A model generated the notes under the pieces. That model was not told where the DNA came from. It searched no databases and saw only the letters and a list, made by a program, of their open reading frames with translations. Below, one piece after another: positions 1,461-64,000 of a stretch of 64,000 nucleotides of DNA. The position numbers and the translations under genes were made by a program. The DNA comes from Eledone cirrhosa. Taxonomy: Eukaryota. Positions within the stretch are counted from its first letter, which is position 1. Each line of letters begins with the position of its first letter. The stretch is taken from the NCBI GenBank assembly GCA_964016885.1, contig OZ024753.1, positions 992,001-1,056,000 of the forward strand. The letters are read 5' to 3'.

Positions 1461-1602
1461 TATATTCATTTATATTCTGAGTTCAAATCCTAGAGATGAT
1501 TTAGCTTTTTACCCTTCCAGATTCAATAACATGAAGTAAGATGAACCAATGACAGCCTGTACATATTCGCAGTACATCTTAGAAATAACAATTGAATGTC
1601 AC

Positions 1603-1819: not shown

Positions 1820-2192
1820 AACACACTTTAATCTCTTATTTCAGAAGAGGACATGTTAAATAATGTAATTCTGCATACATTTACAAAGGCAGAATGGTCA
1901 CTAAATAATAAATATCTAAAATATATACCAGCTATATTGTACACAGTTCTAGGAGAGATTTGGCGTGATACGGTATGTCACAAGGTGCACCCTTTCATCT
2001 ACAGATGAAACAACTCATTTTTGCTAGTTGAATGGTTACAGAAACGTGAAATAAAGTGTCTTGCTCAAGGACACAAGATAAGCCAGGAATCGAACTTAAG
2101 ATTATGAACCAAACAACCTAACCACTAAACTATGTGCCTTCATTGTTGGTGATATGAAATGTAGTATCAACCGTTTCTCCGTTGTTCTATAG

Positions 2193-2234
2193 ATTAGCTG
2201 GACAAAGGGAGATAACTCTTTTTCACACTCGTAA
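2193..2234 (+). CDS. Probable terminal coding exon of the ALDH gene (ISWTKGDNSFSHS*)
   Basis: ttctatag acceptor, phase 0 compatible with the previous exon, TAA at 2232-2234. A short last exon after EVK(T/N) resembles the ALDH1/2 gene structure as I recall it. Confidence 0.55.
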   Translation: MSWTKGDNSFSHS

Positions 2235-3296
2235 TTTTTTGTTTTCTACGTGAAGCTTTTCGTGTTTTTGTAGTTTTTCTTATCTTCGTGTGAGCTCTAA
2301 TATAATTTAAAATGTCCCATCAATGACCATGTCATCGATTTTAAATTCGTAGTGTATGTAGGAACATATCGTCTAATGAGTACTTCTTTTTTTTTAATAG
2401 TTGGGAGTCGAAAGTTTTATAAATAACATTATAAATTGTTCGCAATTCGTTCATAAGAACATTACAAATATAATGTCGTTGATAAACACAAATATAAACG
2501 CATAAAAGAGAGGGAAAAAACATGAAGGAAAGGGTGGGGAGACAAAACCGACCATCAATTCACCACCAAGTGCGACAATGGGACGCACATCACATCATAA
2601 GGATTAAGTGCTTTGAGAGAGATCTATCTGCTAATCCTAGCAAATCGCAAGACTACGTTCAGGCTCTCCCGTTTGTATTTTCATGTTGCTGATGCAGATG
2701 ACCAAAGATATCTAATGTGGTCCTTTCTTTTTTAACTCTTGACAGCCTAAACGGCCATAGTTTTATGATACGAATCTCTCCATTTTAAAATATTCTTAAT
2801 ATACCATCAACATTTATTAAAAGATATTTTTCTAAGTAATGTTGAAAGCACCAATTTAATAATGAAAAGGTTAATTATTTTAACAAATTCTTCCATATAT
2901 CTTATAATTTTCAAAATTAATTGACGTACATAGGTAGTGTATTTAATTAGAAATAGTGTTGTTAAGTAGAGAAAAATATGAAGGGAGATTTGGTTTGTAT
3001 TTCTAACAAGCCGAATAACCACATAGATTCTCTTGTTACCTCATGTTATTGTAGAACAGACCCAGTTCAACTTTGATCCAGCAGATGTATGAATAAAAGC
3101 ATCCCAGCTGTAACTATACCATCTTTTATCAGGAGTGATATATCTTGGACTACAAGATGCAATGACCTTCCATTTTAAAAACAATAGAGACATTATTTGA
3201 AGGAGAGTTGACTGCCATTCTTAGCAGATCAATCAACCATTTTATGTACAGGTTGAACTAAAGTCAAAGAAAGCCAAGTTGACACCAAGATATATA

Positions 3297-3397
3297 CAGG
3301 GTGTCTCCAAAAAATATATACACACTTCAACAGCATTCTAATAAATATTACCTGTACAGGTAATCAAAGTATATATACATTTTTGGGAGACACTCTA
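3297..3397. mobile_element. ~100-bp Tc1/mariner-type MITE (second copy 29665-29763)
   Basis: TA flanks, TIR cagggtgtctccaaaaa / tttttgggagacactct, conserved core in both copies. Confidence 0.75.
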
Positions 3398-4743
3398 TAT
3401 CTAAAATAAGAGAATTATTAAAGATATTAAAACGTGTACACATCTAACTAAAATAAGTTACCATTACTGATCTTGAACTACAAGATCTCATGTATTCTTT
3501 CATTTATTTTATGACACAGAATGTCATTTTGTAGCTATTTCTACCACATCAAGTAACTTAACTGCATAGAAAGCTCCCAATATCAGTGGTTTGCCATATA
3601 AAGTGCCATGTAGAAGACTGGGTATATAAAGGAAAAGGTCAAATCAGTTACTGGCAAGTGTTATTTATAATGGTCTCAATCATACAGTGGACTGCTACAT
3701 TAGTCAACAATCTTTCTTCTAGTGACCTTTGACCTTTACAGCAATGATAACAATTTGTACAGTTAGTACATATAAATCTATTTCTGTGGTGGAGGTTGTT
3801 TTTTTTTTTTTTGTTTGGTGGGTTTTTTTTTATTGTTTAGACAGGAGAAAGAATAGTTCCCAGGACTCTTTTTAGGGCCACTGAGACTGGTGGAAGAGAA
3901 AGAGGAAAGTATCCTTTATCCGTGAAGTAGAATATTTATAACAGAGTAGATGCTGCCAAAGATACCCAAGGGCTAGGTGGTGGTGTTAAACTAGGCAGCT
4001 AATAGTCTACCATCTAATTAACTGGGTAAATGATTTGTAGGGGCTGTACAAGCCATGTACAGGGATACATACAGCAAGGTGAGCATTAACAATTGAGAAT
4101 AATGATGAATTTTGTATGCAAATAAGGGTCCACCAGTGCTTACTTCTCAGTCCCCTTCTATTTATAGGGTCATAGAGGTGCTGTATTGACATACTGCGTT
4201 TCTTTGACATTTTAAGCCTGGCAGATCCCATCCCTCTCCAAGGCTGAGTATAGCAGATTTCTTCCAGAGAAAGATAGAAAGTGGGAGAGAGGAAATGAGA
4301 AAGAGATATAGAAGAGGAATCGACCCCAGTACTAGACTAGTACTTTTTTTTATCAACCTCAAAAGGATGAAAAGCAAAGTTAACTTCGGCGGGATATGAG
4401 TTCAGGGAGCCAGAACGAATACCATAAAGCATTCTATCCAACATTCTAATGGTTCTGCCGTCTACAAAAGCTATAGTAGAGTTAGACAAATTCCAAGCAT
4501 GAAAGCAAAACCTGTAATTGTAAGACCTCAAAGTAAAGTTCTAGTGAACTGTCTGTGCTCAGTTTGCAGAAAAGGAGTAGGGAGAAATTCCATATGGTGT
4601 ACACAATGTAAATTATAGATATACAAGAGATGTAGTGGAAGCAAAGGCAGGTTAACAAAACTGCAAGTGTCATATGTATATATATAAATTATATTTGGAA
4701 AAAGGAAACAAGATAAAGAAAAATTTACCTATCTATTTAGAAT

Positions 4744-4812
4744 GTCCATACTATAGTTTCATTGAGTAACTTCAGTTTTGAGCACTGTGGAAACCTCAAC
4801 TTATCAGAGAAC
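4744..4812 (-). ncRNA. Degenerate type I hammerhead motif
   Basis: GUUCU-CUGAUAA-GUUGAG...CUCAAU-GAAA-CUAUAG-UA^UGGAC. G8->A in core, palindromic stem III. Confidence 0.5.
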
Positions 4813-5440
4813 TTTTTAACAAGAAAGAATTCTCCTAAAATTTTCTGCTACCAGCAATAATTTCGAATTGGGAGAATTATCATGAGATTTATGGTCAACA
4901 GAGGGGCAATAGTAGGTTGATAATGGCAAGTAATGGGGCTGCTAGTAGAAGCAGTCGCAGTGTGATTTGGTCAAATCTTTTTACTCAACCTTTAGGGAAT
5001 AATTAACAAATTTACTGCAGAAGAAGAAAAAAAAAAAATATATATATATATATTGTGGAGGCATGTGGCTAATTGGTTAGAGAATTGGATTCACAATCAT
5101 TAGGTTATGAGTTGGAATTACTTGACTGGGTGATGAATTATATTTTTGAGCAAGACACTTGCTCCTTCTGGCTGGATTTGCGACCGGTAGATAGTATTAG
5201 CAATTGGAAAGACCAATGGAAACATTGTTTCCTCGGTCCGATTTGACGAGGTCTGGGATTTTGTTGATCGACTGTCGATATATATCATCATCACCATTTT
5301 ATGTACGTTCTTCCACGCTAGCATGGGTAATATGAAGGATTCAGGACCCCGACAGCTGAGCTCCTGCCATTTCAACAGCTAGATCCGAACAGATCTAGCT
5401 GTTGAAATGGGAGCTCAGCCATCAGCATCCCGAATCTTTC

Positions 5441-5544
5441 ATATATATATATATATACAATTTCTCCCTACTATATATATATATATATATATATATACAA
5501 TTTCTCCCTACTATATATATATATATATATATACAATTTCTCCC

Positions 5545-5579
<35 letters not shown>

Positions 5580-5624
5580 TTCTCCCTACTATATATATAT
5601 ATATATATATATACAATTTCTCCC

Positions 5625-8584: not shown

Positions 8585-9590
8585 CACACATGTGTGTGTG
8601 TATTGTTTGCATGCAAAGCTTAAGGAGCGCGCAGTAAAATTGAAATGAAAGAATTTTAGGCCACTACATTCGGTATTGGCTATAAATATAGTTGAGTAAA
8701 ATAGGGAATATATATATATAACGAATGAATTGTGGTAAGGAACCAGATGGACCATAACGCACCTGAGTACTCAATACTTAGGGTAGTAGAGTGGGTAATA
8801 GGAAAAGGTATGACCCCGACGGCAGACCTCAAGCCGTTTCAACGGCTATTTCTGAACTCATATAGCCGTCGAAACGGCTTGAGCTCTGCCGTCGGGGTCA
8901 TACCTTTTCCTATATATATATATATATAAGATTATGTGTTTATAATATTGTAGTGTTTAAAACATTAAATAAAAGAGTGTTCAATATTGGTGGGTAGAGT
9001 ACACAAATTTAAGTGATAGTGACTTCGAAGTTTCAGCTTATTCACTTCATCTGATGTTTATAATAATAATAATATTAAGATGAACTTTCATCATAGCGAA
9101 AGGAAAAGGCAACGAGACAAGCTATGGAGAGTGTTTGGAAGAAACAGAAAATACCAGTTTAAAATAAATCAAAAGATACTAGAAAACATGCGTTGTTCTC
9201 GGCATTACTTCGCATTATTATTTGTTAGATGTATTGATTGATTTAATGTTTTATAAATAATGTTGATCTCAATTTCTTCTTCATTTGCCTCTGTATCCGT
9301 CCATATCTATCTAGCCATACATATTTATTCTCACATATATAGTGAATCGGTGTGTATTGATACTTCATACTTCGTTCCTGCTCATATATATATATATATA
9401 TAATGTAGAAGTTATATTTAAATTGTTGGGATACAACAAGCAAATATTTTTATAACTGATATAAAGCACTCAACAAATTATTGGAGTAAAAATACGATAT
9501 ATTAACAAATGGAAACTATATTTATAAAACCATGGTCGCATTCTTTAAGGGTATGTCAATATTTATTTAGAAAACTGGTCTATATTATAT

Positions 9591-9649
9591 TTTATCTGAT
9601 GAAAGCACACCATAATTTAACTTGGTGTCCTTGAAATATGTATAATAAA
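9591..9649 (+). ncRNA. Type I hammerhead ribozyme motif with intact core
   Basis: UUUAU-CUGAUGA-AAGcACACCA(loop)UGGUGUcCUU-GAAA-UAUGUA-UA^AUAAA. Stems I and II pair, stem III is near-palindromic. Confidence 0.7.
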
Positions 9650-9826
9650 TATGGTTTTATAAATATAGTTTCCATTTGTTAATAATCGTATAGATATCGT
9701 CTCCTTGAACTATATATATATATATATATATATAGTTCAAGGAGACGATATATATTTTATGTGCGTATTTAATCAAAATAAAACTTTATACATAAATCAT
9801 CACAGCCGAGGCTTTATCCTCACACA

Positions 9827-12339: not shown

Positions 12340-13281
12340 GTTTGGAAAGCTGTGAATTGTTGTAAAGAGCAAGGAAATGTGTCGGATAGACCCAGAAGTG
12401 GAACACCGCAAACTAAACAAACTCTTACTCATTAAAGCCTTTCGAGAAAGGATAAAAAGAAATCCGATAAGGTCCCTGAGAAAAATGGCAAATGAGGTCC
12501 AAGTAAGCCCTAGGACAATGAGAAAGATCATCAATGATGACTTGGGAATGTCTTCCTTCAGAAGAGACAAACCCTTTCTGTTAAGACAAAACAAAATAAG
12601 GCTACAGAGAAACAAGAATTTGCTTAAAGATATGAAAATGTCTGGTCAGATGAAAAGATTTTCACTGTTGAGCAGACACACAACCGAAGAAACGATCAAG
12701 TCATTGGAAAAAAAGCACCAGCAATCAGTGTTGACCCCAAATCTGTATTCCATACAATAAAACCAGCTTCTGTTGTGGTCTAAGGGCTGTTTCATCATCT
12801 TGGAGGTTTTCTCTCATTTTTGTGGAAGACAGGACAAGAATCAGCTCCCAATAAATGGCATTCTGGAGTCTATGCTTGCTTTTGCAACTGATCATTTTGA
12901 CAATGATTATCTGTGGACCTCCCAACAAGATGGAGCCATCTCCCAGAGACCATTTTTCGAGGTTCTGGCCTCCTTGTTTGCCTGATTTGGACCTTATGGA
13001 CTTTTCAGTATGGTCTATCCTTGAAGGAAAAGTCCATAAAACAGTCAATGATTTAAAGGCATCTTTACTGAGCACTTGGAAAGAAATTCCCCAAGAAATG
13101 TTGTGTGCTTTGGTGAAAGATGTTCGACGGAGGTTAGAGGTTGTTATTGCTGCAAGAGGGGGCAATTTTGAATAAACTCTATACATTATATTCTAAAGAT
13201 ATGTACGTTGCTGGGCAATAAAGTTAGTAGTTTTGTTATTAAAAGCATTTTTATTTGCTTCCAAACTTATGGCCCACCCTG
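12340..13281 (+). mobile_element. Decayed IS630-Tc1-mariner element, maT/DD37D (Bmmar1-like)
   Basis: Frameshifted RIKRNPIRSLRKMA, WSDEKIFTVE, QQDGA, WPPCLPDLDLMDFSVWS, IAARGGNFE. Right TIR ...ttatggcccaccctg|TA. Confidence 0.85.
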
Positions 13282-14239: not shown

Positions 14240-16395
14240 ACGGGTGTCATTAAGTGAGAAGGAAACTCCTTAAAACTTGCAACTGAAGCAAGGCATGTCA
14301 CTGGACTCTAGTTGTGGATACTTAGAGAGTGGTACTCATTTTGTACAGGCATTTACCACTATAAAATGCTGATGTACAGACGTCATATCTTTCTTCGTCT
14401 ACCCTATTTCTGAAATACTGCAGTGATAGACGAATGATAACATGTGCAGACCTGACCAGTTGCAAGCTTATAGTCACAAGTCTGCACACTGGGGGGCTTG
14501 AGCTTACTTTGCCTCACTCAAGCAGGAATAAGAATAAAACAAAATGTAAAAAATACGCGAAAGATCAAGTCAAACGTCTGGACATCCTGAGCATAGAACT
14601 GCACTTGTGACAAAAGAACACAGAAGATTGAACATAGGCATATCAGCTTTATCAAACATGTTTGCCAGGAGAAGATCAATTAACAAAAGTATCATTTGTT
14701 CTCTCTTTTTGGGGTAGGTAAACCCATAACTGAACGGAGAATAGGCGGTGTTGGCTTTGCCATATGAACATCACTGCTTGATCGTATGGAATGTCCTACT
14801 GGTGTAACCAATAACATTATGAAGCTTTGTATTCCTCTGACACATGGCTGTTATGTAACACTCTTATCTCTTTATGCACCAACCCTACAGACAAGTGAGG
14901 TGGTATTTGATTCTTTCTAAAAGTCTCTTTATGCTGTCATTGCATGCAAACCTGCTGACGATAAGTTATTACTTCTCAGTGATTTCAATGCTCTTGTGGG
15001 TGATGATCACATGACGTGGGACACATTCGGTATCGGTAAAATGAAGACTAGCAGCCTGAGGTTGCTTGAACTCTGCTCAGAAGCTCAAATATAAATCTAC
15101 ATGGTATCATCCAAGATCCAAGTATGGACACATGATTGATTTCATCATCACTCGTAAATGAGATCTAAGGGATGTGTGTACAGTGTGTGTTTTGCAGTGT
15201 ATAATGTGGTACTGACCACAAATTACTAACTGAGGAAAGTTCAAGATGAGTATCCACAAAAGAATTCATATGAGTGGAGTGAAAGCACCGAAATGCATTG
15301 ATGTCACCAATTTGAGGCAAGCAGATGTATGTGCAACCTTAACTGAAAGATTTGATAACTTTGATTTTGATGGCATTTTGGAAAACTTTAGAGTTCAGGT
15401 TTACTCAGTGGGAGCTGAGGTACTTGGCTTCAGAACCAAAAAACACCAAGACTGGTTTGATGACAACAATCCTAATATCAATCAGCTACTAAAAACCAAG
15501 CACACTCTCTATGAAAAGTTCCTGAATCAGAATCCCATAGCACAACCAGCTGTCGATAAAGCCTACAAAGATCACTAGGCAACACTGCAACACAAACTAC
15601 GCATGATCAAAAATGAGTGGTGGAGTAACATCTCTTCAGAAATCCAACAGGCTTTTAACACCAAATATTCAGTCATTTTGCTTATTGATACGCCAAGTCT
15701 TCGGCCCAACAACATACTCAGTAACTCCTCTGAGATCTAAAGACGATGCCAATATCACCATCAAAGAGCCATCAAACATCCTTCAGTGTTGAGAGGAACA
15801 CTTTACTGACCTATTTGACAACCCATCAGCAGTCAATTTTGAAGTGATAGAGGGCCTTCCTCACTGTGAAACAGTGCATTGTATGGATCGACTTCTCTCT
15901 GCTGATGAAATAAAGCTGGCAGTCAAGTAGGTTAACTCTGGCAAGGCACCAGGTCCAGATGGTATCCCAGTCGAACTGCTGAAAGTCGGTAGTGATAAAT
16001 GTCATCACAGATTGCTGGAATGGGACCTCGGTTCCGCAGGACTGGATCAATGGTATTTTGTTATCATTATACAAAGGCAAAGGTGAAAAATCGATGTGGC
16101 AACTACTGTGTTATCACTGTGTTGGAAGCTGTTGGCAAGGTTCTTGCAAGACTTTTGCTCAACAGACTGGAGGATATCTGTCCTATATCTATCCCAGAAT
16201 TTAGAGGAGGAAGAGAAACAGTTGACATGTTTTTCTCTGTAAGACAAATACAAGAAAAATACATTGAGCAGTGTGGCCCTCTATATCAAATCTTTGTTGA
16301 CCTAACAAAAGCTTTTAACACAGTTAACAGAGGGAAAGTAGGATATCCACCCAAGTTTGTGTATATGCTAAATCAGCTGCACAGAAACATGAAGT
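14240..16395 (+). mobile_element. Decayed RTE-clade LINE (APE endonuclease plus N-terminal RT), 3'-truncated
   Basis: Motifs GVGFAI, DFNA, WYHPRSK..HMIDFII, TDHKLL, APGPDGIPVELLK, RGGRETVDMFF, FVDLTKAFNTVNR with many stops. Confidence 0.88.
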
Positions 16396-16434
16396 ATGTA
16401 TATATTATTGTTATTATTGACATATGTCAGTATT

Positions 16435-16975
16435 GAAAGACTATGGATCTGCACCTGTAGAATTAGTCACCTCTCCAGGGCGCAGGCCTGAGTAGGGTTT
16501 TATGGGAGATCGGCAGTTGCCCTTGCAGCATGTCTCCCCTCTCCACACCACTGGTGTTGTCCAAGGGAAGGGCAGAGGCCAATACAGTTTGGCACTGGTG
16601 GGGTTTCAGGAGTTGCCAGAATGAGGTTGAACTACTTTAGGGACTCCGTCTCCAGATTTATCGTTGGGGTTTACTCCTGAAGCCTTTTCCTCAAGTGGGT
16701 ATAGCTGCAAGGCAGCAGAGGTTTAAGTTCAGAGTTTGCCTCCTAGGCTGACGAATTCAATCTACCTAAAGCACTGGTTTGAAGGCACCAGAACCCACCT
16801 ATGCCCCTCTGTTGGTTGAGACATTTCCACTAGGCTTGTATGTTAAGCCACATAAAAAGGCCAGGAATTGGACTTGGTTGCCAGAGGATATTTGAGGTGC
16901 ATGCCGCAAGGAGCATTTTTTGAGCAGTGCGAACTCATCCCCACTGCTACTCCTCGGCCTAGCAACCTTGGAACC
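16435..16975 (-). mobile_element. 5' UTR-type segment of an RTE element (AviRTE-like, from memory)
   Basis: Minus strand has blocks ctgccttgcagctatacccact, aaggcttcaggagtaaacccc, ggagtccctaaag, ggagaggggagac. Similar to the tail of the SINE at 25865-26190. Confidence 0.55.
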
Positions 16976-29273: not shown

Positions 29274-29324
<51 letters not shown>

Positions 29325-29536
29325 ATTAGTCCTTCATCAGTGATCTTCCTGATGAAGGACTAATTTTATTCATATGTAACCCATTTGCAACCACGCAGCA
29401 CGCCACCTGTCATATATATATATATATATTATGTGTGTGTATATATATGTATATACATATGAGCAAGGCATGGTCAGCCGACCGGACACTGCCCACAGCT
29501 AACCCATGCTAGCATGGAAGAACGGACGTAAAATTA

Positions 29537-34564: not shown

Positions 34565-35757
34565 TGAAGAGTGGGCTGAAAGGTTCATAGGCTGACTATA
34601 AAGGATTGATGCTAGAGCTGTGGAATCTTGCACGCATTAATGTTAACTCTTCTTATTAATAACTGCATTGTTTCTTTCCAGGTAAACTGACATCTGACTG
34701 TTTAAAGAAGACTTCAAAAGTAACTAGTAGCGACTACTCTTGAAATTTGACAAACTGTGGCATTGTGGTGGTATCAAGTACCTGCGGGAAAAGTGTACAG
34801 CCCCAAAGGACATTTATGCTGACATAGTTGCTACGTTAAGGGATGGTGTTTCAGCTTTATCAACAGTGCAAAATTGGGCATCTAAATTTAGCAGGAGAAG
34901 GGAGAGTCTTGAAATGACCCAAGGTCTGAACGTCCTGCAACTGCCACCACCAAGGAAAACATTGATTGTGTTAACCACATTGTGATGGATGACAGGCAAT
35001 TAACTATAAATCAAGTAGCCAATGTTATTAGCATATTCCGTAATAGTGTTGAGAATATTTTGTACAATGAACTTGGCATGATGAAGGTTTCTGCTGAGTG
35101 CATGCCATGTCTTATGACACCTGATCAAAAGCACACCAGTCTGATGTCATCACGGAAAAATCTGACATTGTTTGAGGCAGATCCAGCTAGTTTCCTTGAA
35201 CATTTCCTAACCCAGGATGATGAGCTTTGAGCCAGAGTCAAAGAGACAATCTATGCAGTGGAAACAGCCGTCCTCGCCTGCTCCAAAGAAGGCCAAGTTT
35301 GTTTCAAAGTGATGGCCTCAGATTTTTGGGATGCAAAAGGCATTGTGTTTATTGACTATCTTCAAAAGGGTCACACCATCAACAGATGCCAATTTGCTGA
35401 GGCAATTATGAAAGGCTATCAAGACCAAACGCCAAGGAAAACTAACGAAAGGGGTCTTGTTTTATCAGGACAATGCTCCAGCGCACAAGTCATTGATTTC
35501 AATGGCTTCTGTTCCCTAACATGAAAAAAACACTTGACTGGGAACCAGTATCACAGTAATGATGACATCATATCTGTTGTTGATGACTTTTTTTACCAAT
35601 AGGATGAAAGCTTCTTCACTAATGGGATCCAAACACTACAACAGCGATGGAAGACATCTGTAGACTACAAGGGGGGCAATGTTGAAAAATAAACCTCATT
35701 TAGTCACATTCCATAAGAGTATCTTGGTCAGCGTATAAACTTTTCAGCCGTCTCTCA
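34565..35757 (+). mobile_element. Near full-length decayed mariner (irritans/Hsmar2-like)
   Basis: TIRs ggctgaaaggttcataggctgac / gtcagcgtataaacttttcagcc. Transposase fragments DDRQLTINQVA, KVMASDFWDAKGIVFIDYLQKGHTIN, QDNAP with stops and frameshifts. Confidence 0.88.
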
Positions 35758-44015: not shown

Positions 44016-44620
44016 AATTTAAATTAAAGTTGTACAAGATACTAAGACCCAATTTAAATTAAAGTTGTACAAGATACTAAGACCCAATTTAAATTAAAGT
44101 TGTGCAAGATACTAAGACCCAATTTAAATTAAAGTTGTACAAGATACTAAGACCCAATTTAAATTAAAGTTGTACTAGATACTAAGACCCAATTTAAATT
44201 AAAGTTGTACAAGATACTAAGACCCAATTTAAATTAAAGTTGTACAAGATACTAAGACTCAATTTAAATTAAAGTTGTACTAGATACTAAGACCCAATTT
44301 AAATTAAAGTTGTGCAAGATACTAAGACCCAATTTAAATTAAAGTTGTACAAGATACTAAGACTCAATTTAAATTAAAGTTGTACAAGATACTAAGACTC
44401 AATTTAAATTAAAGTTGTACAAGATACTAAGACCCAATTTAAATTAAAGTTGTACAAGATACTAAGACTCAATTTAAATTAAAGTTGTACTAGATACTAA
44501 GACCCAATTTAAATTAAAGTTGTGCAAGATACTAAGACCCAATTTAAATTAAAGTTGTACAAGATACTAAGACTCAATTTAAATTAAAGTTGTACTAGAT
44601 ACTAAGACCCAATTTAAATT
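44016..44620. repeat. 35-bp minisatellite, ~17 copies
   Basis: Unit aatttaaattaaagttgtacaagatactaagaccc with three recurring single-base variants. Confidence 0.97.
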
Positions 44621-44840: not shown

Positions 44841-45814
44841 ATGGTGGTGATGGTGGTGGTGATGGTGGTGGTGGTGGTGGTGGTGGTGGTGGTGGTAGTA
44901 GTAGTAGTAGTAACAGCAACAGCAGGAATTGTTTAGAAATTGTATCATCATCATTACTCTGTTTATTTTCTAAGTTGGCAATGGCTGGGGTAGTGTGGTT
45001 TGAGTGGTTGAGCTTGATACACTGAATCTTTTTACATGTCTCAGTCTTGTATAAGCTATCCCTTATTCCCCTGCATATATCTATATATCTGCAGCCCTCA
45101 CAGTCTTCTTATTCATTTAAGTAGCTTTACACTCCTCCCTACTGCACCACTTTTGCTGATTCACTCCACCCTAATCTGTTGTGTATATGTATGTGTGCAT
45201 GTATATGTATGTGTGTGTATGTATATGTGTGCATGTGTGTATATATATATATATGTATTTGATAGTGTGTAGTAAATAGATAATTGTCTACAATATTTAA
45301 AAGAAAAAAAACACTTCAATCTTGTTTGTTTCATCTTTTGTAATTTGTTTGTATTTTTTACTTTATTACATTTCTTAAAAAGTGCCCCCCCCCCCTTTCT
45401 CCCTTCCTCCTCCTATCCCTTATCACCCATTTTAAAAACAAATTCCATGTTGTCAGAAATTAAATGTCTGCCCTGCAATACAACACAATATATCATCCAC
45501 CTTCCATGACTCTGGGAGCAACTACCCCATCACATTGGTGAAATGTTTAAATATCTATCTTGAGCCATACAAATATTTGTAAAATAAATCAAGTTCATGT
45601 ATTACGAGAACATAAGTGTTCTGGCATTTAGGGCAAGGGCTCTTTTGGTAATTGTCTTAGCCTTTCATCATCTCCTTTCCCTTTGGAGACCAATAAATAA
45701 GTTACCTAACTGATGATACTTTTGCCAAAGTTGATCAGTTTTAATCCAAATAAATTGTCATCATTGTTTTTGTTACCATCATCATAATCAGTTATTGTAA
45801 TTGTTTCAATTTCA

Positions 45815-46345
45815 ACACACAGTCTCAGATCAAGTCACTTGCCAGACAAGTACAACTATGACTAAAATGACTCTTGCATGTTGTAATTGCTTTATTTTAG
45901 CACAGGGTCTCAGATCAAGTCACTTGCCAGACAAGTACAACTGTGGCTAAAATGACTCTTGCATGTTGTAATTGCTTTATTTTAGCACAGGGTCTCAGAT
46001 CAAGTCACTTGCCAGACAAGTACAACTGTGGCTAAAATGACTCTTCCATGTTGTAATTGCTTTATTTTAGCACAAGGTCTCAGATCAAGTCACTTGACAG
46101 ACAAGTACAACTATGGCTAAAATGACTCTTCCATGTTGTAATTGCTTTATTTTAGCACAGGGTCTCAGATCAAGTCACTTGCCAGACAAGTACAACTATG
46201 GCTAAAATGACTCTTCCATGTTGTAATTGCTTTATTTTAGCACAGGGTCTCAGATCAAGTCACTTGCCAGACAAGTACAACTATGGCTAAAATGACTCTT
46301 CCATGTGATTGTTTTAGTTTCAACACACAGTCCCAGATCAAGTCA
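45815..46345. repeat. 85-bp minisatellite, ~6 copies
   Basis: Unit starts at 45901, 45986, 46071, 46156, 46241, with degenerate end copies. Confidence 0.95.
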
Positions 46346-49300
46346 CAATGTTCAAAGTTAATGCTATGTGAGACTGTCCTTTCAATGCTGATAAATCAGT
46401 AATTTACTGGAATATATCTTTTGTCAGGGAAAATAATGTCATGTTTATTATGTGCCTTCTGCTTGTCTTTCTCTATACTAAAGTTCCATAATAGTTTTGA
46501 AGCTGATCATTGAAACCTATCAAAATTTGAGTTACAATATATTGTCAAGGATCTGACAACTATAAACATTTCATGACTGTATTTCTAATGAAATACACTC
46601 AATTTCAATTAATTAATGAAGAATTTTAAGGGATTTATTAAAATTATTAATTATTTCATTTCTAAGATAGTAAGGTTCTTATATATAATTAACGTTGAAA
46701 GATTTTAATTTAAACTGGAAACCTTTAAAATGGGTGGTAAAATCTCTTTTTTATGCTTTTTTCGATTCCTTTGGCCTTCCCTTATTTAAATCCCTCTGTC
46801 TAACTTGTTTTTGTTTCTTAATAGGCTAGGGTATATATATATCATCATCATCATCGTTTAACGTCCATCTTTCATCTTTCACACTAGCATGGGTTAGATG
46901 GTTATTTGATGCAGGAATGGTCGGGAGACTGTGTCTCGCTTGTAATATGAAATAATGCTATAAGGAATTTTATTGTTTCCATCTATAATACATATTTTTC
47001 TTTGAAATATGTGTTTTGTGTATATGCAATACATTGTATACTCTCATGGGATATATGGTTCTCTTTCTCTCAATATACATAAATCTTTTAATTTGAAATA
47101 TATTTATTAGTTTATAGGGTCATTTCAAATTGATGCAGATGTTTCATATTTGATATCATATTAAAGGACCTACATTACTTCTGCCTATGTAGAGAATGAT
47201 CGAGAGAAGGAAACATGAGCTGTTGTTTTCAAGGAGTTCAGATGGCTCTAAAGTTTCAGTTGTTAATCTCTTCTGAACTTATTTAGTGCTATATGCTTTA
47301 AATAAATATCTGCAATCATATTTACAACTGTTATCTCTATAAGGGACTGTGTTTTTGATATCAGCGTAAATCCTTTAAGACATAGTTATCTTAGAGATAT
47401 TTCAAAAATGCATAGAGATATAGATGAATTATTAAAACCACACCCTGAAATCACCAAGGACTCCAAACAACCAAAATTTAAAGAAAAGTTGCATTAAATA
47501 GTTTTATAGATTGTGGAAAATGTTTTAAAATGTGATGAACATATAAATATTAATGTCATTCATTCAGCACATTTGCAGTTGCACAAACATGTGCATCTAA
47601 AATGTTTACATGTATATATGCATGTATAAGCTTGTGCATATTTATATATATATAAACATATAATATTGTGCATTTATTATACATTTGTATTTGTAAATAC
47701 ACATACAAGGAGTGACTTGTATGTGTGTCACCCCAACCCATGTAGGATACTCTTGCAGAAGGCCAGAATCATGTCCCCTTCAACAAACAGTGTAACATAC
47801 CCGCAATAGTCTATGAGGCTGAAGTTGCATCTATCTACTCGACTTAACCAACAGCAGGAGTTGTGGGAATGGCAGAGGGCCGGGTGAAATGCGCATACTC
47901 CAGTATGGCCTGCTAATTTGCTGTGAAACTAACTCTATTCAGAACTCATTCTATGGACTGAGTACTTTACTTACTATGGATGTAACCTCCCGTGTTTTTA
48001 CCACCATATATATGTGTGTGTGTGTGTTTCTATAAATATTTAAATATGTACACAAAGATTTTAAAGAGAGTCAACACCTTGAATATTGAGGCAATGGTAC
48101 ACAAGCATTGTCAACATTGCACCAGACACTTTATGTGAATGAATCATCAGAGAATCCTGAAGCAAGTCCTGTTTTATTTCTGGTTTTGTGTATGAATGTA
48201 AGAAATGATATAAATTATGATGATGATGATAGATGCACACATACCAATGCTTGATATTAAATATAAGTTCATTATGTTAGTAGGTGATGGTAAAGCCAGG
48301 GCAACATTTATGTGATCCATGTAAATTCCTAAATTCCATGACAGTTTTACCCTACATTCATATATGTAAAAGCTGTGTTTCCCTTGTGAATTGTGCGTTT
48401 CTCTAAAAATATTTGTCCCCACTATCAAAGGTCAGGTTATCAGTTTCTCATCTCTTACAAATAATTTACATTCTCATCATTTTAACCTTCCTTCTCATTT
48501 CTCTCTGTTAGCAACACTGTCAAAACTGTTATTTGATAGCCCATAGCCCTCTATTGTTTTAGTTTCATCATACATAATCACTCTATTTTGCTTTGTTTGT
48601 GTGTGGTTTTCCTTCGGTATATATATATGTGTGTGTGTGTGTGGTTTTCTTTCTCTGTGTGTGTGGTTTTCTTTCTGTGTGTGTGTGTGTGTATATACAA
48701 GGGATTATTTTCATATTTTTCTGTTTCACAGATTTTAAATTTTAATGGAAAATTATTTTTCCTTGTCGCATTCAGTCCTCTTTAACTTCTTTTCTGTGCA
48801 TATGTAATGTGTGTATCTCAATGATTATGTATGTTTGTATATGTTTGTGTATGTATGTGTGTATATATATATATGTGTGTATATATATATATATATATCA
48901 AACCCATGAAAGCATGGAAGATGGACGTTAAACGATGATGATGATGATGATGATATATATATATATGTATATATATGTGTGTGTGTGTATGTATGTATAT
49001 ATGTATATATATGTGTGTGTGTGTATCATCATCACCGTTTTACGTCCGTTGTGTATGTATGTATATATGTATATATATGTGTGTGTGTGTATGTATGTAT
49101 ATATGTATATATATGTGTGTGTATGTAGGCATATATATATATATGTGCGTGTATGTATGCATGTATGTGTATGTATGCATACACACTGGCACAAATCCTG
49201 GATTTCCCGGATCTATTAATATTAGGTTTCTCAAATACCCTTCTTTTCATATTAGAGCATTATTTCTTGTCTGTTAAAGCTCATATGTGGTTCAGTAAGA

Positions 49301-55271: not shown

Positions 55272-56432
55272 TATTTCTTCCATACTGAAGAAGGTGTTAT
55301 TCTGTGGGCCAAAGCTCAGCAGCAGATGAAGAAAAACAGAGAAGCTACTTTGAAAGAGTACCACGCTCAGAAGAAGAATGCTCAAAGTCGACTGAAGAAT
55401 CCGGTTCCCATACCTTTAGCATCTGAAGGTGTGTACGTTAACATTCATATGGCCGACAAAATTCTTACACCAACACCTATCAAACCGAGTGTCAATGCAT
55501 TTCACACGGATAACCCAACTAACAGCAGTAGCAACAGCAACACAAAATCACAAATAGATGTCACACAGTTTGAACAGGAGGATGACCCATTTGAAAATGT
55601 TGAGCGACAGGTAATCAACGAATTTGAAGAACTAAATCAGGTGTTTCAGAACTCTGCTGAGTCACTGGAGTCACCTGAAGGGAACTATGAGAATATTGTC
55701 ATTAACAAGCCTCCGTTACCTATACCAGATAGCGTTGTTACAGGATCAGATAGTGTGTCACCAAATCCTGTCCCCACATTACAACCAACAACCACCGACG
55801 AGCCTCTAACAAACAGTGAAGAGTCTAATGTAGAAGTAATTCGAAACAAAACTGAAACAGACTTCCAAGAAGGGGAAAACACAGATAGAAACATTGTCTA
55901 TGGGAACTTGCCGTACCGTAAAAAATCAACATCCAGTTCCCAGAAAAGACGAGAGAGCAATAATTATGTAATGGTCTCTTATGCAAATGGTCGTTTGGTG
56001 CATGATGCAACTAAATTAACCACAAAACAATTATCTCTAGATGAAGAATCAAAACCTAATTTTGTATGTAATTATTTCAAGCGGAATTTCTCTACCAGTC
56101 AGGAGAACCCTGGAAGTATTCTTGATGCAACTCAACTGAATGAAAGTATTTACGAAAACCTTCCCATTTCTAGCACGGACAATTATGAAAACTGTCTTTT
56201 ACCACAGAGGTCGAGACATTCAGTAGCGTTTGATGTTGACACAACTGTTAACCCTCCAGCTATCCCTCCCAGAACAGACTTAACCAAATTGCGTAGTACT
56301 CACAGTACACCAAACATCCATCAAGCGTCATCTGACAGAGATGCTGAAACTGTCTCTCCTTTCCATTCCCCCTCTAAACCAGCTCCAAGAAAGCAAGTTA
56401 AATCTCCTGCATCTCCAGTACCAAGAAAACAG
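55272..56432 (+). CDS. UBAP1: UBAP1-like large central exon
   Basis: tttttag/gtgagg splice sites. Begins YFFHTEEGVILWA (UMA YDFxLEKxxIxWA) and contains FEQEDDPFENVERQVINEFEELNQVF, matching the conserved UBAP1 EEDPFDNLELKTIDEKEEL block. Includes ORF 55326-56459. Confidence 0.9.
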
Positions 56433-56516
56433 GTGAGGAGGATATTTATTTTAATTTGAATATCATAATATGAATTTTTTTTTTTTATCTATTTTATTTC
56501 CTGTTTATCGTAAGAA

Positions 56517-56764
56517 GTAGGTATCAGCCCACAGGTGCCAATGCAGGTGTTGTGATGTAGGTATCAGCCCACAGGTGCCAATGCAGGTGTTGTGTTGTAG
56601 GTATCAGCCCACAGGTGCCAATGCAGGTGTTGTGATGTAGGTATCAGCCCACAGGTGCCAATGCAGGTGTTGTGATGTAGGTATCAGCCCACAGGTGCCA
56701 ATGCAGGTGTTGTGATGTAGGTATCAGCCCACAGGTGCCAATGCAGGTGTTGTGTTGTAGGTAT
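56517..56764. repeat. 40-bp minisatellite, 6 copies, in UBAP1 intron
   Basis: Unit gtaggtatcagcccacaggtgccaatgcaggtgttgtgat. Confidence 0.97.
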
Positions 56765-59700
56765 TAGAACATTAGGTGTCCATTTAAAAATGTTCCACTT
56801 GTAAGTATGTATATATATATGTGCAGATGTAATGCACATCTAACATGTAACATTCTCACTTGTATGCATGGACACACAGACAGTAAATGATATATATTCC
56901 TTGTAATTGTTTAAAATTACTATCCATTTATTCTCAATTTGGTTTCATTTACAAAGAAAGCAAAAGAACAGTAACAATAAAAAGTAAATCAGATTTTTTT
57001 AATGTAAAACTTTGCATATGGAAATTAGAGTTTGGGTTTAGGGTTAGTCTTAAAGGTTAGGATTAAAGCTTAAGGTTAGAATTTAAACTTTAGGTGTAAA
57101 GTTTAGAGTTCGGCTATATACAGACGTGTGTGTATGCACTATAAGGTGGTATGAAGAACATCCAACTGTAGAAACCACGCTAAACAAAAACGTATGAGCA
57201 AGACTTGGTCATCTGAACTCTCTAGTCTCAGAACATAACAACCCATCTAATTCATGCTAGTATGAAACATCATCATCATCATCATTTTACGTCCGCTTTA
57301 CCCTGCTTGCAAGGGTGGGACGGGAACTGATTCTGGCTTGATTTCTACAGCTGGATGCCCTTCCTGACATCAACCTCATTTACAGTGAGTGCTGGGTGCT
57401 TTTTGGATATAAAAAGGTAATGATGTTATATATATATATATATAATCATCATCATCACCGTTTTACGTCCGTTCTTCCACGCTAGCATGGGTTAGACGGG
57501 TTGTCCTGTTGTGGGCAGTGTCCGGTCAGCTGACCATGTCTTGCTCATATATCATTATCATTTAACATCTATTTTTCACACTAACATGGGATATATATAT
57601 ATGTATATATGCTAGCATAGAAAAATGGACGTTAAACAGTGACGAAATTGATAAAGGTGATTATAATGGAATATTCCACTATTACTTTTAGTTAGGTGAG
57701 AGAAGCTCAATGCACACTAAAATCCTCAGCTTGTAAGCAATGTAAAACAGACAAAATATTCTTCGAAAGTTAAAGTTCTTGTTGTTGAGGACAGTACAGA
57801 TAGCAGAACATTAATATTTAAAATGAAGAAAAACCAAGGTTAACAACTTAAATATTTAATTTGTATGTTTGTTTTTATACAGGTAACAATGGTACATGCA
57901 TATGTAAATAATAAGTTAATCAGAAACAGTTAATTAGCAATTATTTACACAAGACATAATACATATAACAACTGCATATCTTCAGGAAATATAAGAAGGA
58001 ATAAGGGTTACCAAATTCAAATAATAAAAATAGATCTCACATCAAATATTGGACATAAGGCAAGCATTTAACGAAGACTGTACATGAAATGGTTGTAACG
58101 TGCAAAACTAAAAGATTGTGATTATATGTTGAGGTAAAAAGCATTACCTCATTATTGTTAATAATATTATTATTTTTCCTTATATTGTTAGAAGAATATT
58201 TGTTGGTGGTTAGATAAAATACATTGACAGGAATGTGAAAAGTGAGGCAGCGAAGTGAAATTAGTTTTGGGACAGCAGTAAGAATTTCTTAAGATATAGG
58301 AAACATACGAAAATTATCATTAATATTAATCAGTTATTAATCAGCTTTGAAGTTCCAATAAAAGTAGAGAAATAAATTGGTTGACTTCATAATCTGTTGT
58401 CAGTTATAAGCATTCAAAAATTCATATATTTGAAGATTCAGTTTCACACAGCAAACTCAAAAGTTGTAAAACAGTGTCGTTGAATTTTGCTGTGTTTTTC
58501 TTTAATGTGGCCAGTTAAATATTTGCTCTGAGTTACAGCATGTCAAATTATATTTATTACTAATTACCCTGTGAATTAATGATCAAGGTATAATTAGTAG
58601 TTTTGGTTTAGAAAAGTGGTTACAGATATACCACGTTAATATTATGGACTACCGTAATTATAGTGGTGCTCAGAAGTGCATATACACACACACATATACA
58701 CATACATGCATATACACACATACATGTACCATTATCATCACAGCATGGGTTAGATTGGTTGTCCTATTTGTGGCAAGTTGAAGTCAAATGACCATGTCTT
58801 GCTCATACAGAACCAATTTTAGCTTGGTTTCTACAGTTGGATGCCCTTCCTAAGACCAACCACATTTACAGTGAGTACTGGGGCTGCTTTTTGTCATGAG
58901 ACCTACTAAATAAACTTAAAGGCATTTTTTCATCTTTTGAAGGGGGCTTATTTTGCAATGATGTCCTCTTCACTATTAAAAGAAATAGTAGAAACCTTGA
59001 GCCGAATAAAAAAAACGTCTGCATAAATTGCAAGCAAATATGCATACAAATGACAACATAATTTTCTAAAAAGTCTTGTATGGAGGATGGAAAAGGAACA
59101 CGATAGAAGTACTGACGGGAAGTAACTCTGGCATGAAAAACTCTTTACTTTGAAATTAGCAGAGAGGGGGTGGGGAATTGAAAGTTAGTCTGTTTACTAC
59201 ATACACACATATTATCGATATATATCTATATATCCATTCACATATGCATACACATGATTGTACTGACAGACATTTATCTGTATAAAGCACAATTAGGACC
59301 TTGTGTTACATTTAGTGGGAGGAAAGGTAGAGAAAGAAAGAATAAGATGAGAAAAGCAGCAGGAGGGTATAAACATATGTTCATGGTGAGAGTTAATGTA
59401 AACCCATCCTTGGTAAGTAGAAATACATATAAACTGAATGAGTGATACATTGAGAGAATTTAGGAGTGAATATGTTGTAAAATAAAGTATGATTAACCCT
59501 TTAGTATTCACATTACTCTATATATACTATTATATTTTCATGGTAAAGGCTTTACCTCGCATAATTATCTCACAAATATCGAATCTATGAGATTTTGAAA
59601 GTATTTATTTTGAGAACAATATCTTAACAGACCAGTTACAGCCAGTTTCAACAGAAAGAGGTAGAGAATTCTGGCCGGTTTGAACATTGAAGGGTTAACT

Positions 59701-61093
59701 GTAAATTTTGTGTCTCAACATATTACTCATCACCAAGGATGGGTTTAGCATTATTAGATGAACATTAATCCTTTAGCATTTACATTACTCTATATTTACT
59801 ATTGTATTTTCATAGTAAAGGCTGAATCTCATAATTATCTCACATAATATCAAATCTATGAGATTTTGATATTATTTATTTTGAGAACAATACCTTAACA
59901 TAAGTATGAGCTGCCAGTTGCGGCCTATTTGAACAGAAAGAGGTGAGATAATTCTGGCTGGATATGGCCGGTTTAAATGCTAATGGGTTAACTCTCACCA
60001 TGAACATGTCTTTATATCCTCCTGCTGCTTTTCTCATCTTATTCTTTCTCTATTTTCCTCCCAATCAATGTAACTCTTATTTAATCTTCTGGATGCTCCA
60101 GGTACATTAAGTCGCCGATAGAGTAATCTCCCCTTGCGATGCGATTCATAAAGAGTGCTAAAGGTTAATTGTCTGCCTGGTATGTCGATATCGTCATTTT
60201 AATTATATAAAGTAAACAGACGTTAACGTGAGTACTCAACTGTGCTTTACCATGTGTGTTTATAGATATGAAGAGATATATAGATTAATATATGGCAGGT
60301 TAATTTTCATTATTTTTTCTTTTGTTTTTTCCACTGCTCTTTTCAAAGAAGCATTTTTTTAATACCCGAGTTGCCTCCCTTCTATAATTTTTTTTTTTTT
60401 TTTTTTTTTGCCTGGAGATCTTTTCCAAAATCTCGTCTCACCATTTGTATACACATGCTTGCAGTTAGGCAAGTTTTGTTAGCTTATGAATTATTTCCCT
60501 TTATCATAAGAATTTTGTAAATAATGTCAACGTAAAATGAGCGACTGAAAGAATAATGTGGATGTCAAATTATAATTCATATATGTGTTTGCATACGCAT
60601 TCCCAATTCCCCTTGTCAATCTTTAATCATTGTCCAATCACAGACGGTAATTGCAGTAGGAACAACTCACCCCAAACTGTCTCAAGTTCTATGATTCAAA
60701 ACCACCCCATTTAAACCCTGTAGCGTTTTACCATTTACATTACTCAATATTTACTATTATATTACAGGAATAAGACAGATTAAATCTAGTCCTACACTAT
60801 GTACACTTACAGGAATAAGACTTAGTTTAAATCTAGTCTTACACTATGTACACTCACAAGAATAAATCTTGTACACTTACAGGAATAAGGCTTAGTTTAA
60901 ATCCAAGGTGCTGCACAGTGGGACTGAACCCAAGGTGTGTCAATGATAGAGTCATCAATCCTATTAGTATTTTGTAATTAGATATCGTTCAATTCATTCA
61001 TTCTGCACATATTTTTTTGTCACAGGAAAACACATTAAATGATGACGATGATGATGTCTTTCATTAAATTACTTTCCATATCTTATTCTTCAG

Positions 61094-61333
61094 TCTTGGA
61101 GTCGGCACTCTCCACTAGCACCGATCCGAGCACGCTCCAATGGCCAGGTATCACAGGGTTCAGTAGATACGAGCTGTAGTGATGATAGCCCTACAGATTA
61201 CACTCAGGCTACCGACCCTTTTGCAGCATTGTCACAAGAAGCTCAGACGTTTGCCCAGCAATATCTTTCCATGGGGTTCCCTCGGGCCAGAGTTGCGAGG
61301 GCTGTCCAGAAATTAGGATTACAAGAAAAAGAT
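61094..61333 (+). CDS. UBAP1: UBAP1-like exon leading into the first UBA of the SOUBA domain
   Basis: ttcttcag/gtgagt splice sites, 240 nt in frame. Ends ALSQEAQTFAQQYLSMGFPRARVARAVQKLGLQEKD, with the UBA MGF motif. Confidence 0.88.
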
Positions 61334-62133
61334 GTGAGTATATCAGTGTGTGTGTGTGTGTGTGTGCAATAATGGTTGTGTGTGTGTACACAAAGGAAAT
61401 ATGTGAATAATTTAAGTTGAATGTGAGTTCCATGGCAGTGGTTTTATGTATTTCATGGTATGTCTTTGTAATTTGTGTGTGAGTGTGTATAGATCACCAT
61501 CATATAGATGTGTGTGCATATGTATATATGTGACTGGATGTGTGTGTATATGGGTATAGTTGTGTGCGCGTCTGTATTTAAATAGCGATGTTTGTTTATG
61601 TATATATATGTATGGATATAAATGTAACCTCTCTCTCTTTATATATATATATAGAATGTAAAAATGACAATGATGATGACAATATATATAGATGTGTCTG
61701 TAAGTTTATATATGCAAATATAAATAATTCAAATTCATAGATATATGTATAGATATTGAGAGAGAGACATATACATATATCTTATGAGAAAAACACAGTA
61801 TATTGTTCACACAAAAAGCACATAAATCTATGAAGAATACGTACTTCGGATAGAAAAGGTTCTTATTTCCTTATCGCCATTTCCTGATTCAAGGAGAACC
61901 ATAACTTAAAATCCATCATTGATCCCCAACTATCGATTTTGGTTAAGTTATGGGAGACAAGAATCAATCATGAGAGGAATTACATCAATTAAATGTAGTT
62001 GCAATAAAGTATATTATAGAAAATAACTGTCTATTGAGCTTTAGCTTTTCCACTGAGAAGCACAAATATCATACTTAATATATATGTTATACCTTAAATT
62101 TGTATATACATACATACATATATATATACATAC

Positions 62134-62168
<35 letters not shown>

Positions 62169-62169
62169 G

Positions 62170-62866
62170 ATAGATAATTTAATATATCTACTAACATAAG
62201 CGCACAGATGTACGCTAATGCCAGCAAATACACAGGTTATGTCATAGTACCTAGGTGGTTCAATGCAGGAGGATGCAGAACAATAATATAAGAGACGTAA
62301 AATAAGAAAATTAAAAAAAAAAAATTTTTTTTAAAAATTAACTTACTTACTTAAATTTTCACTCCAACTAATTAGTTTCTGCAATGGGATAAAGACAGTT
62401 ACGTAATGAACTGTTGAGAATTTCATTGCGTCATCAGGGAGGTCATTCTCAGCCAAGTCTCCAGGCAATGCGCGGACACTGGGGACTCATATAAAAATAA
62501 TAATAATTCGGTAAATGGAACAGCTATCGAGGACTGGATTCCAGGTACTGAAAATTCTCACTTCCACTGGTCATATGGCCGATTCTAAAGAATCAATCAC
62601 GTGACACAGAGGCTAGTCAGTAGGAATGGGATGGTAAGATGACAGACGCCTACTAACACCCCAAAAAAATTTAGAAGTGGTTTTGGCAGGTTTGCTCGAC
62701 AAATCAGTGATTTGGAGATAAATATAGATAATTTAATATATCTACTAACATAAGCGCACAGATGTACGCTAATGCCAGCAAATACACAGGTTATGTCATA
62801 GTACCTAGGTGGTTCAATGCAGGAGGATGCAGAACAATAATATAAGAGACGTAAAATAAGAAAATT
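62170..62866 (-). mobile_element. Non-coding retrozyme/PLE-like insert with 143-bp direct repeats and a hammerhead
   Basis: 62170-62312 and 62724-62866 appear identical (554-bp period). Hammerhead lies between them, with (TA)n on both flanks. Confidence 0.7.
62362..62441 (-). ncRNA. Type I hammerhead ribozyme motif
   Basis: CUCC-CUGAUGA-C-GCAAUG...CAUUGC-A-GAAA-CUAAUUAG-UU^GGAG. Intact core, palindromic stem III, C/A mismatch at base of stem II. Confidence 0.72.
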
Positions 62867-62989
62867 TTTATATATATATATATAATGTGGAAAGTGATAT
62901 AAGGCTAAACAATGCAAAATGAACGGTAAGATGAAGGTAACAAAAAAGTAAGTTACCTGGTAATCTTTGTTTTTTTTTTTTTTTTGTTG

Positions 62990-63530
62990 CTGTTGTTTCT
63001 TTCATTCTAATATTTTGGGACTTAAAATTCCCTTCTTCAGAGTATAAGGTACTTTCAGAGAATAATGATCTGGTTTCTTATCTTTGGATTTAAATTTTAT
63101 AAACTGCTTTCAATCGTTTTTCGATGGTTGTTTCATTATTCACAAGAACCTGGAGGACGACATCAATTGCTGATGTAATATTTCATGGAATCAATTTTCT
63201 TGTATCAGATGTTGTTTAGGTTGCGTATGTGTATGCATGTTTGTCAGTGTGTACTGAGTTCTAGTCTGTTATTTATTTCTATGTATGAACAAGGCTGCCT
63301 TAATTCTTAAATTGCCCACATTCCTCTCTCTGGCTTCAATATTGACCGTTATATTTTTGTTGATGTTTCTGCATTTGTCAATGGTGTTTTTTGAATGAGG
63401 ATGCGTGTGTTGAGGTGTTCTGGAGTGCCGAGTCATGCTACCAATGTAGAACTCCTTACATTTACTGCATTCAATCCAGTATACCATATGTGTCTGCTGG
63501 CACCTACCTGTGTCGCGGATAAGGCAGTTA
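62990..63530 (-). mobile_element. Penelope-like element 3' fragment: GIY-YIG endonuclease plus downstream degenerate hammerhead
   Basis: ORF 63269-63487 VYWIECSKCKEFYIGSMTR...LRIKAALFI matches PLE GIY-YIG with the CxxC insert. Hammerhead-like motif at 63004-63045 on the same strand. Confidence 0.8.
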
Positions 63531-63610
63531 GTCAGTGATCATTGGTTGTTGTTGTCTCTGGATTGCTTTTTAGATAGGTATCCATGCAAGCAGATGTAAA
63601 AACAATGATG

Positions 63611-63974: not shown

Positions 63975-64000
63975 GTGATTGACCATTTGTGTATGGTTGA
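63975..64000 (+). CDS. UBAP1: UBAP1-like exon, truncated by window end (VIDHLCMV...)
   Basis: tatttcag acceptor, phase 0, continues UBA helix 3 (cf. QILDYL). Confidence 0.7.

Follow-up and report, generated by a model that had tools for sequence, protein, structure and literature searches.

The insertion at 62170–62866 (minus strand) was interpreted as a recent copy of a high-copy, non-coding repeat, placed in (TA)n by a Penelope-like reverse transcriptase (RT)/endonuclease acting in trans and likely copied from a linear tandem template, a reading to which we assign roughly even chances. It lies in the window, by which we mean the whole 64-kb stretch of octopus DNA that was analysed. By its sequence features alone, the repeat would be a member of the non-LTR retrozyme/Penelope-like element (PLE)-derived kind. 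No cephalopod retrozyme was described in the literature found, which was searched outside Repbase and Dfam, and the words ribozyme and hammerhead are absent from the accessible portion of the O. vulgaris repeat annotation and its supplement (PMC13282606). The family is apparently undescribed; it may already sit unnamed in a repeat library.

For the rebuilding of PLE terminal repeats and the role of PLE hammerheads, one model invokes a circular RNA, and the only in vitro study found internal priming on uncut RNA (PMC11167929). Here the family is young, short, non-coding and high in copy number, it has one hammerhead and a marked terminal hairpin, and its ends can be measured. The ends of the copies alone would therefore separate these models, the discriminating features being whether 3′ ends are fixed or permuted and whether 5′ ends accumulate at the cut site or ahead of it.

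Insertion geometry and host intron

The insertion and its surroundings comprise the following features:

61091..61336, plus strand: UBAP1 exon upstream of the host intron (tblastn range, O. vulgaris protein)
62103..62169, no strand: TA/TACA microsatellite, abutting the element's 3′ end
62170..62866, minus strand: whole insertion, 697 bp = 1.26 units
62170..62723, minus strand: one full unit, 554 nt, 37% GC, non-coding
62313..62337, minus strand: A8/U12 tract, immediately followed by the 5′ truncation point (62866 = 62312)
62724..62866, minus strand: upstream 5′-truncated copy, pseudo-LTR-like, 143 nt, same as 62170–62312, without the hammerhead
62867..62884, no strand: TT + (TA)8, abutting the element's 5′ end
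62973..63588, minus strand: older Penelope-like relic with a GIY-YIG fragment (63272–63538) and its own decayed hammerhead, not part of the unit
63045–63004, minus strand: decayed minimal PLE-type hammerhead of the relic
63975..63998, plus strand: beginning of the following UBAP1 exon (AG, then VIDHLCMV), where the host intron ends

The host gene was identified from an exon at 55272–56456, which was 91% identical to an Octopus vulgaris protein (5 matches among 1619 candidates) whose cuttlefish homologue is named Ubiquitin-associated protein 1. Because the flanking exons (61091–61336 and 63975–63998) are on the plus strand and the unit is on the minus strand, the unit is intronic, as the sequence-only reading had it, and antisense to UBAP1, so that UBAP1 pre-mRNA carries the strand without the ribozyme. 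A PDB search with the UBA exon gave no match, and an Atlas query consisting of the large exon's first 143 aa returned only unrelated leads.

The direct repeats (62170–62312 and 62724–62866) are 143 nt each, with 0 mismatches and a period of 554 nt. Counted from the predicted hammerhead cut, the 5′ end of the insertion is the 54th nucleotide, and the insert runs in monomer coordinates from 54 to 554 and then from 1 to 196, so the template was longer than one linear monomer, with the cut site intact or re-ligated. On the circularised unit the longest ATG-started frames were 27–29 aa, and the RT + GIY-YIG ORF of an autonomous PLE was absent from the unit. These results agree with the earlier description of identical 143-bp repeats 554 bp apart, (TA)n on both sides, a 5′ end ~50 nt past the cleavage site and no credible ORF. 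No target-site duplication was readable at the insertion's flanks, and no second copy of the unit was present in the 64-kb window. With 0 of 143 positions different, divergence between the repeats is bounded at ~2%, and the insertion is therefore young.

The sequence-only reading had proposed a recent insertion by a Penelope RT and had cited the nearby GIY-YIG fragment in support. Recency stood, and a Penelope-type RT is the most likely enzyme; the fragment had to be dropped as evidence for the mobiliser. Its best Atlas match scored 0.95, the matched cluster having PF01541 in 51% of its members, and Pfam gave no match for it (63272–63538, minus strand). About 230 nt downstream of the fragment lies the relic's own hammerhead, in which the G of GAAA is replaced and stem I has one mismatch; the contig depth of this older family peaks on it (63004–63045). 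The relic differs from nearly all its relatives at many sites and has no similarity to the unit except poly(A). As a decayed, separate family, it indicates that PLEs occur here, and it is not evidence for the unit's mobiliser.

Hammerhead motif and terminal hairpin

The predicted RNA features of the unit are as follows:

62362..62441, minus strand: type I hammerhead motif, the locus' only one; predicted cut between 62366 and 62365, after GUU
62441–62438 with 62365–62362, minus strand: stem I, 4 bp
62437–62431, minus strand: CUGAUGA, hammerhead core
62430–62380, minus strand: stem II, 51 nt, with a C·A closing pair, 6 Watson-Crick pairs and an internal loop
62379–62376, minus strand: GAAA, hammerhead core
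62376–62367, minus strand: palindromic helix III, 10 nt; predicted intermolecular 10-bp duplex of −9.0 kcal/mol, a double-hammerhead option
62415..62451, minus strand: candidate 7-bp pseudoknot, 62451–62445 (5′ of stem I) with 62421–62415 (stem II internal loop)
62736..62787, minus strand: hairpin of 23 bp, 7 of them G·U, whose end is 12 nt short of the repeat's 3′ end; second copy at 62182–62233

The core elements CUGANGA, GAAA and NUH and the three helices in type I order were all present, and the minus-strand type I hammerhead named by the sequence-only reading was recovered with a strict type I descriptor. Among 3000 dinucleotide-shuffled versions of the 554-nt unit, 5 matched this descriptor, and 0 of 3000 did so when helix III was set to at least 4 pairs. 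Rfam returned no hammerhead match in the window at the gathering score, nor in 62000–63600 at E up to 10, where 13 weak matches were mostly to TA repeats and none was to this ribozyme class; the hammerhead call therefore rests on our own descriptor. A pattern scan gave 0 matches in metagenome contigs and 0 in viral contigs. Within 62170–62866 no second hammerhead core was found on either strand, only one-mismatch words. Because the 143-nt repeat excludes the hammerhead, the locus has a single one, and it is thus unable to release a cut-to-cut monomer or a monomer circle. The window holds one other strict type I match, at 9585–9655 (plus strand, at 9596), with AT-rich stems; it may be chance or another PLE relic.

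The G10.1–C11.1 closing pair beside the core is absent, its place at the base of stem II being taken by C·A, with G–C as the next pair. Stem II has two A·C oppositions and a 6-bp inner hairpin (62414–62409 with 62400–62395). A U at the cleavage position is poorer than a C. The predicted active fold was −13.2 kcal/mol versus −15.7 kcal/mol for an inactive fold in which the core is paired with helix III (a gap of 2.5 kcal/mol), and computed pair probabilities of stems I and III were near 0.01 in the full locus. At the closing-pair position, an axolotl hammerhead motif tolerates a U·U mismatch (PMC7229834). The core is complete; the C·A, the GUU site and the lower-energy inactive fold lead us to predict slow cutting, and the motif, as modelled, may be inactive. 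The hammerhead thus appears imperfect yet unusually elaborated, with its 51-nt stem II and candidate pseudoknot.

The candidate pseudoknot could be a peripheral contact between stem I and stem II of the sort seen in pseudoknot-stabilised hammerheads (Perreault et al., 2011, PMC3088659). Unlike the hammerheads described there, the octopus motif offers only a 7-bp candidate without covariation, whose complement was reached by 808 of 20000 flank shuffles (p about 0.04), and we treat it as a lead only; a listed family variant at 62415 retains a G·U pair in it. Stem II folded better on the plus strand (z −2.8) than on the minus strand (z −1.6), because its A·C oppositions become G·U there. The inner-hairpin loop at 62401–62407 (minus strand) complements the 5′ strand of stem II with 6 of 7 pairs here and 7 of 7 in an X5 variant, and could be a competing fold or a duplication relic. 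An AUG at 62424–62426 (minus strand), at the start of stem II, was kept in all three sequence variants among the loose ends; the frame it starts is just 27 codons long and is shifted by a common deletion of 1 nt at 62421.

When compared with shuffles, the monomer gave fold z scores of −4.95 (minus strand) and −4.24 (plus strand), and it was computed to be 66% paired as a circle. The 23-bp hairpin forms on the minus strand only (z −6.2, versus −0.1 on the plus strand). Among the family variants listed within it, 3 of 4 keep or add a pair on the minus strand and 0 of 4 do so on the plus strand; one of the four breaks a minus-strand pair, unless an unlisted change compensates. The minus-only hairpin and this variant pattern indicate that the RNA has the same polarity as the hammerhead. 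In our model the hairpin is a candidate RT recognition signal. The hairpin and the unit junction are also spanned by a frame of ~90 codons without ATG (62597–62866, minus strand), which had no useful Pfam match. A B-box-like word on the plus strand (62810) belongs to a hairpin, and a promoter is not claimed there.

Family size and copy ends

Public contigs of runs X1, X4, X5 and X6 were compared with 62313–63610 (monomer and right flank) at 82% likeness; repeat parts, namely 62312|62313 (also the edge of the stretch) and 62885–62972, were skipped, and rows X8–X20, with small word shares, were left out of the family counts. Part of the stretch was present in 20 of 23 listed runs, three of which had half or more of its words; no RNA run with the sequence was among those listed, which speaks neither for nor against expression. 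In X1, 2018 contigs fell on the 1298-nt stretch, and summed word depth was 22,000–531,000 on the unit versus 44–5,600 on the neighbouring relic. Summed contig depth overcounts and is not a copy number, and depth per contig was used instead: at 62743, 21 X1 contigs with another letter averaged a word depth of 5738, and 8 listed long X1 contigs had depths of 4.5–22 (median 6.7). Assuming that these listed long contigs are single-copy, the copies that share exact words number at least about 260, more likely 850 or more, and the family probably comprises thousands of copies. The family is heterogeneous: over the whole stretch, 444, 528, 640 and 406 X1 contigs were identical at 99% or more, 95–99%, 90–95% and under 90%, respectively.

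The family was also present in X4 (64 contigs), which carries the organism label of X1 and comes from another sample, and in X5 (28 contigs) and X6 (1 contig, 62352–62502), which carry other labels and come from other studies. The X6 contig had 0 differences and thus the same letters at the hammerhead. Since the X5 and X6 labels may stand for relatives or trace contamination, no cross-species claim is made. These contigs, their depth and the presence of the family in four runs exclude a single-copy sequence, one of the two cases that the sequence-only reading had named as refuting it. The window copy has at least 1 private letter, as 62563 differs in all the depth of three runs, and its letter at 62743 makes up about 35% of X1 depth. 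RNA editing is extensive in cephalopods. On the minus strand, 4 of 4 listed unit transitions were A/G, as editing would leave them, but the full X5 tally (13 versus 9) had no clear bias and an editing signature was rejected.

Two contigs bridge 62723|62724: X5 contig 21 (62690–62845, depth 53.6 of 61.4) and X4 contig 14 (62670–62820, depth 4.2). The end-to-start join of the unit at this point is therefore family-wide. Overlapping listed contigs cover 62353–62845 without high-depth run-off into other sequence. The 62885–62972 flank had zero depth in all four runs, being a stretch skipped as repeat. The ratio of repeat depth to inner-part depth was 1.51, 1.37 and 1.21 in three runs and does not discriminate between the models.

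In one X4 contig, (TA)n gives way to the unit at 62726. This point is only 2 nt away from where the window copy has its 3′ end, and the junction letters differ from those of the window copy. It could be an allele of the window locus; given hundreds of copies, it is probably another insertion and favours a fixed 3′ end, which comes from this one contig (18 loose ends were shown, with 264 more). The sequence-only reading had proposed looking for dispersed or tandem copies with permuted ends; the only other end seen speaks for fixed rather than permuted 3′ ends.

Template, mobiliser and related elements

The layout of the locus, a 5′-truncated copy followed by a full copy, is that of a Penelope partial tandem. 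PLE insertions are described as partial tandems in which a truncated copy accompanies a full one, and a preference for (TA)n is described for Naiads (bioRxiv 2021.04.23.441226); the octopus locus shares the truncated-plus-full tandem and an AT-rich target with the pLTRs of PLEs (PMC4209133), including those of PAc from Anolis (PMC11167929). For PAc, the RT is reported to initiate within a stem-loop downstream of the hammerhead, at fixed positions, and to nick AT-rich DNA, with uncleaved RNA as its main substrate (PMC11167929). The 3′ end of the octopus element likewise lies at a stem-loop downstream of the predicted hammerhead, 196 nt from the cut site versus about 85–92 nt in PAc, and the octopus AUG is at the start of stem II, where the PAc ORF begins (PMC11167929). 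PLE hammerheads combine a short stem I, a long stem II, an extra nucleotide before G–C and a palindromic helix III, and dimeric forms have been proposed (PMC4209133); the octopus motif has the short stem I, the long stem II, the extra nucleotide ahead of G–C and the palindromic helix III, with up to 3 intramolecular pairs in helix III versus none or one in PLE hammerheads. Unlike PLE pLTRs, the octopus unit is without an RT–GIY-YIG ORF and closes on itself at 554 nt.

On the favoured reading, a source locus with two or more units would be transcribed on the minus strand, and the RT would bind at or near the 23-bp hairpin and start at a fixed site ~12 nt beyond the hairpin and 196 nt downstream from where the hammerhead would cut, with a nick in AT-rich DNA as primer. 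It would then copy one whole unit through the uncleaved hammerhead and 143 nt more and stop at the A/U tract. From there 53 nt remain to the upstream cut site, possibly the 5′ end of the RNA. The monomeric hammerhead would probably cleave slowly, and cleavage may occur in dimers joined at the palindromic helix III; the window copy, with one hammerhead, would be a dead end for release of a monomer or circle. Speaking against the favoured reading, no partner autonomous element was found, and the unit has no sequence in common with the only nearby PLE.

Internal priming on a linear tandem transcript, which we hold at about an even probability, was favoured over a circular template, which we consider doubtful. 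The circle model (PMC7229834, PMC4209133) also fits: double cleavage of a tandem transcript followed by ligation would provide a circular monomer for 1.26 turns of rolling reverse transcription. The insert does read across the predicted cut/ligation point, the two repeats are identical although the family is polymorphic there (at 62743), the monomer pairs extensively with itself (z −4.95; 66% of it in pairs when circular), and the type I hammerhead repeats of coral, mussel and axolotl accumulate as circles (PMC7229834). Yet the locus has one hammerhead, the tandem source is unseen, identical repeats are also expected from a young homogeneous dimer, and the unit is longer than the characterised animal retrozyme circles of about 170–400 nt (PMC7229834). 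Nor is a circle necessary, because a Penelope-like RT can use uncleaved linear tandem RNA and starts on it at a fixed internal site (PMC11167929). That the unit is instead the pseudo-LTR/UTR of a coding PLE, most copies being truncated tails and the window copy a deleted or doubled tail, is decidedly improbable. PLE hammerheads are mostly dispersed single motifs from truncated elements (PMC4209133), O. vulgaris has 6.83% Penelope-like DNA with 31 recently active families (PMC13282606), and our contig comparison began at 62313, all of which would leave room for such a tail; against it, the unit is closed in the majority X5 contig at 62723|62724, a point at which an ORF would be expected by analogy with PAc, the listed contigs over 62353–62845 show no high-depth run-off, and the unit has no coding trace.

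The identity of the two terminal repeats and a repeat depth of 1.2–1.5 times the inner median in three runs could also be expected if an LTR retrotransposon had mobilised a small LTR-type or TRIM-like element in which terminal repeats of constant length (143 bp) enclose 411 bp. We regard this as very unlikely, since TG..CA ends, a purine tract before the downstream repeat and a readable target-site duplication were not found, the hammerhead lies outside the repeats, unlike in plant LTR retrozymes (PMC7761336), and the depth ratio is noisy and below 2. The single copy in the 64-kb window and the lack of an Rfam match there would be in keeping with a local duplication or an artefact of assembly whose hammerhead-like motif arose by chance; high depth, thousands of X1 contigs, four runs of three studies and a family-wide junction, together with a motif matched in only 5 of 3000 shuffles, have largely refuted this reading, which is hardly credible.

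Compared with animal non-LTR retrozymes (PMC7229834), the octopus unit is similarly non-coding, below 50% GC, self-paired and high in copy number, with one type I hammerhead. Stem I is 4 bp and stem II 51 nt, versus 6 and 4 bp in the canonical retrozyme. As set out by Li, Clavereau and Pollet (bioRxiv 10.64898/2026.07.22.740005), animal retrozymes are argued to be non-autonomous PLE derivatives with units of 51–972 bp, non-LTR retrozyme units are related to PLE pLTRs, and only loci with two hammerhead units are taken as active; in their assays, 8 of 9 Xenopus retrozyme dimers remained uncleaved in vitro and 1 of 9 was cleaved. The octopus unit of 554 nt is within their size range and, like theirs, has a PLE as proposed helper. 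Unlike active non-LTR retrozymes, the octopus locus has 1.26 units and one hammerhead, and so falls outside their two-unit definition. With plant LTR retrozymes (PMC7761336) it has in common a non-coding, hammerhead-bearing body and direct terminal repeats, and it differs from them in having a type I rather than a type III motif, placed outside the repeats, and in being without a purine tract and without a 4-bp target-site duplication that could be seen.

The most far-reaching reading, which we consider improbable, would make this the first cephalopod retrozyme, with thousands of 554-nt copies, abundant circular RNA and a novel hammerhead architecture. Its branched 51-nt stem II would dock on stem I by way of the 7-bp pseudoknot, and cleavage would depend on helix III dimers and possibly on A-to-I editing of the closing C·A; the unit would also be a natural minimal substrate for mapping the hairpin recognised by a PLE RT. 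If the RNA does cut and circularise, retrozymes would extend to cephalopods and gain an elaborated hammerhead variant; if it does not, the unit is one more Penelope-type repeat in a Penelope-rich genome.

No tRNA gene was found in the window. At 29319–29370, beside (TA)n, a short motif that contains CUGAUGA but lacks GAAA occurs twice, inverted head to head, and this pair looks like the inverted termini of a further PLE-type insertion. At 15234–16436 (plus strand) lie broken fragments of LINE-type reverse transcriptase (RVT_1, E 1.2e-6). Broken frames at 12356–13175 and 34913–35524 (both plus strand) had only a weak HTH match and carry motifs that we take to be those of Tc1/mariner transposases. 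Young minisatellite arrays occupy 44016–44620, 45795–46346 and 56517–56808, with periods of 35, 85 and 40 nt, respectively.
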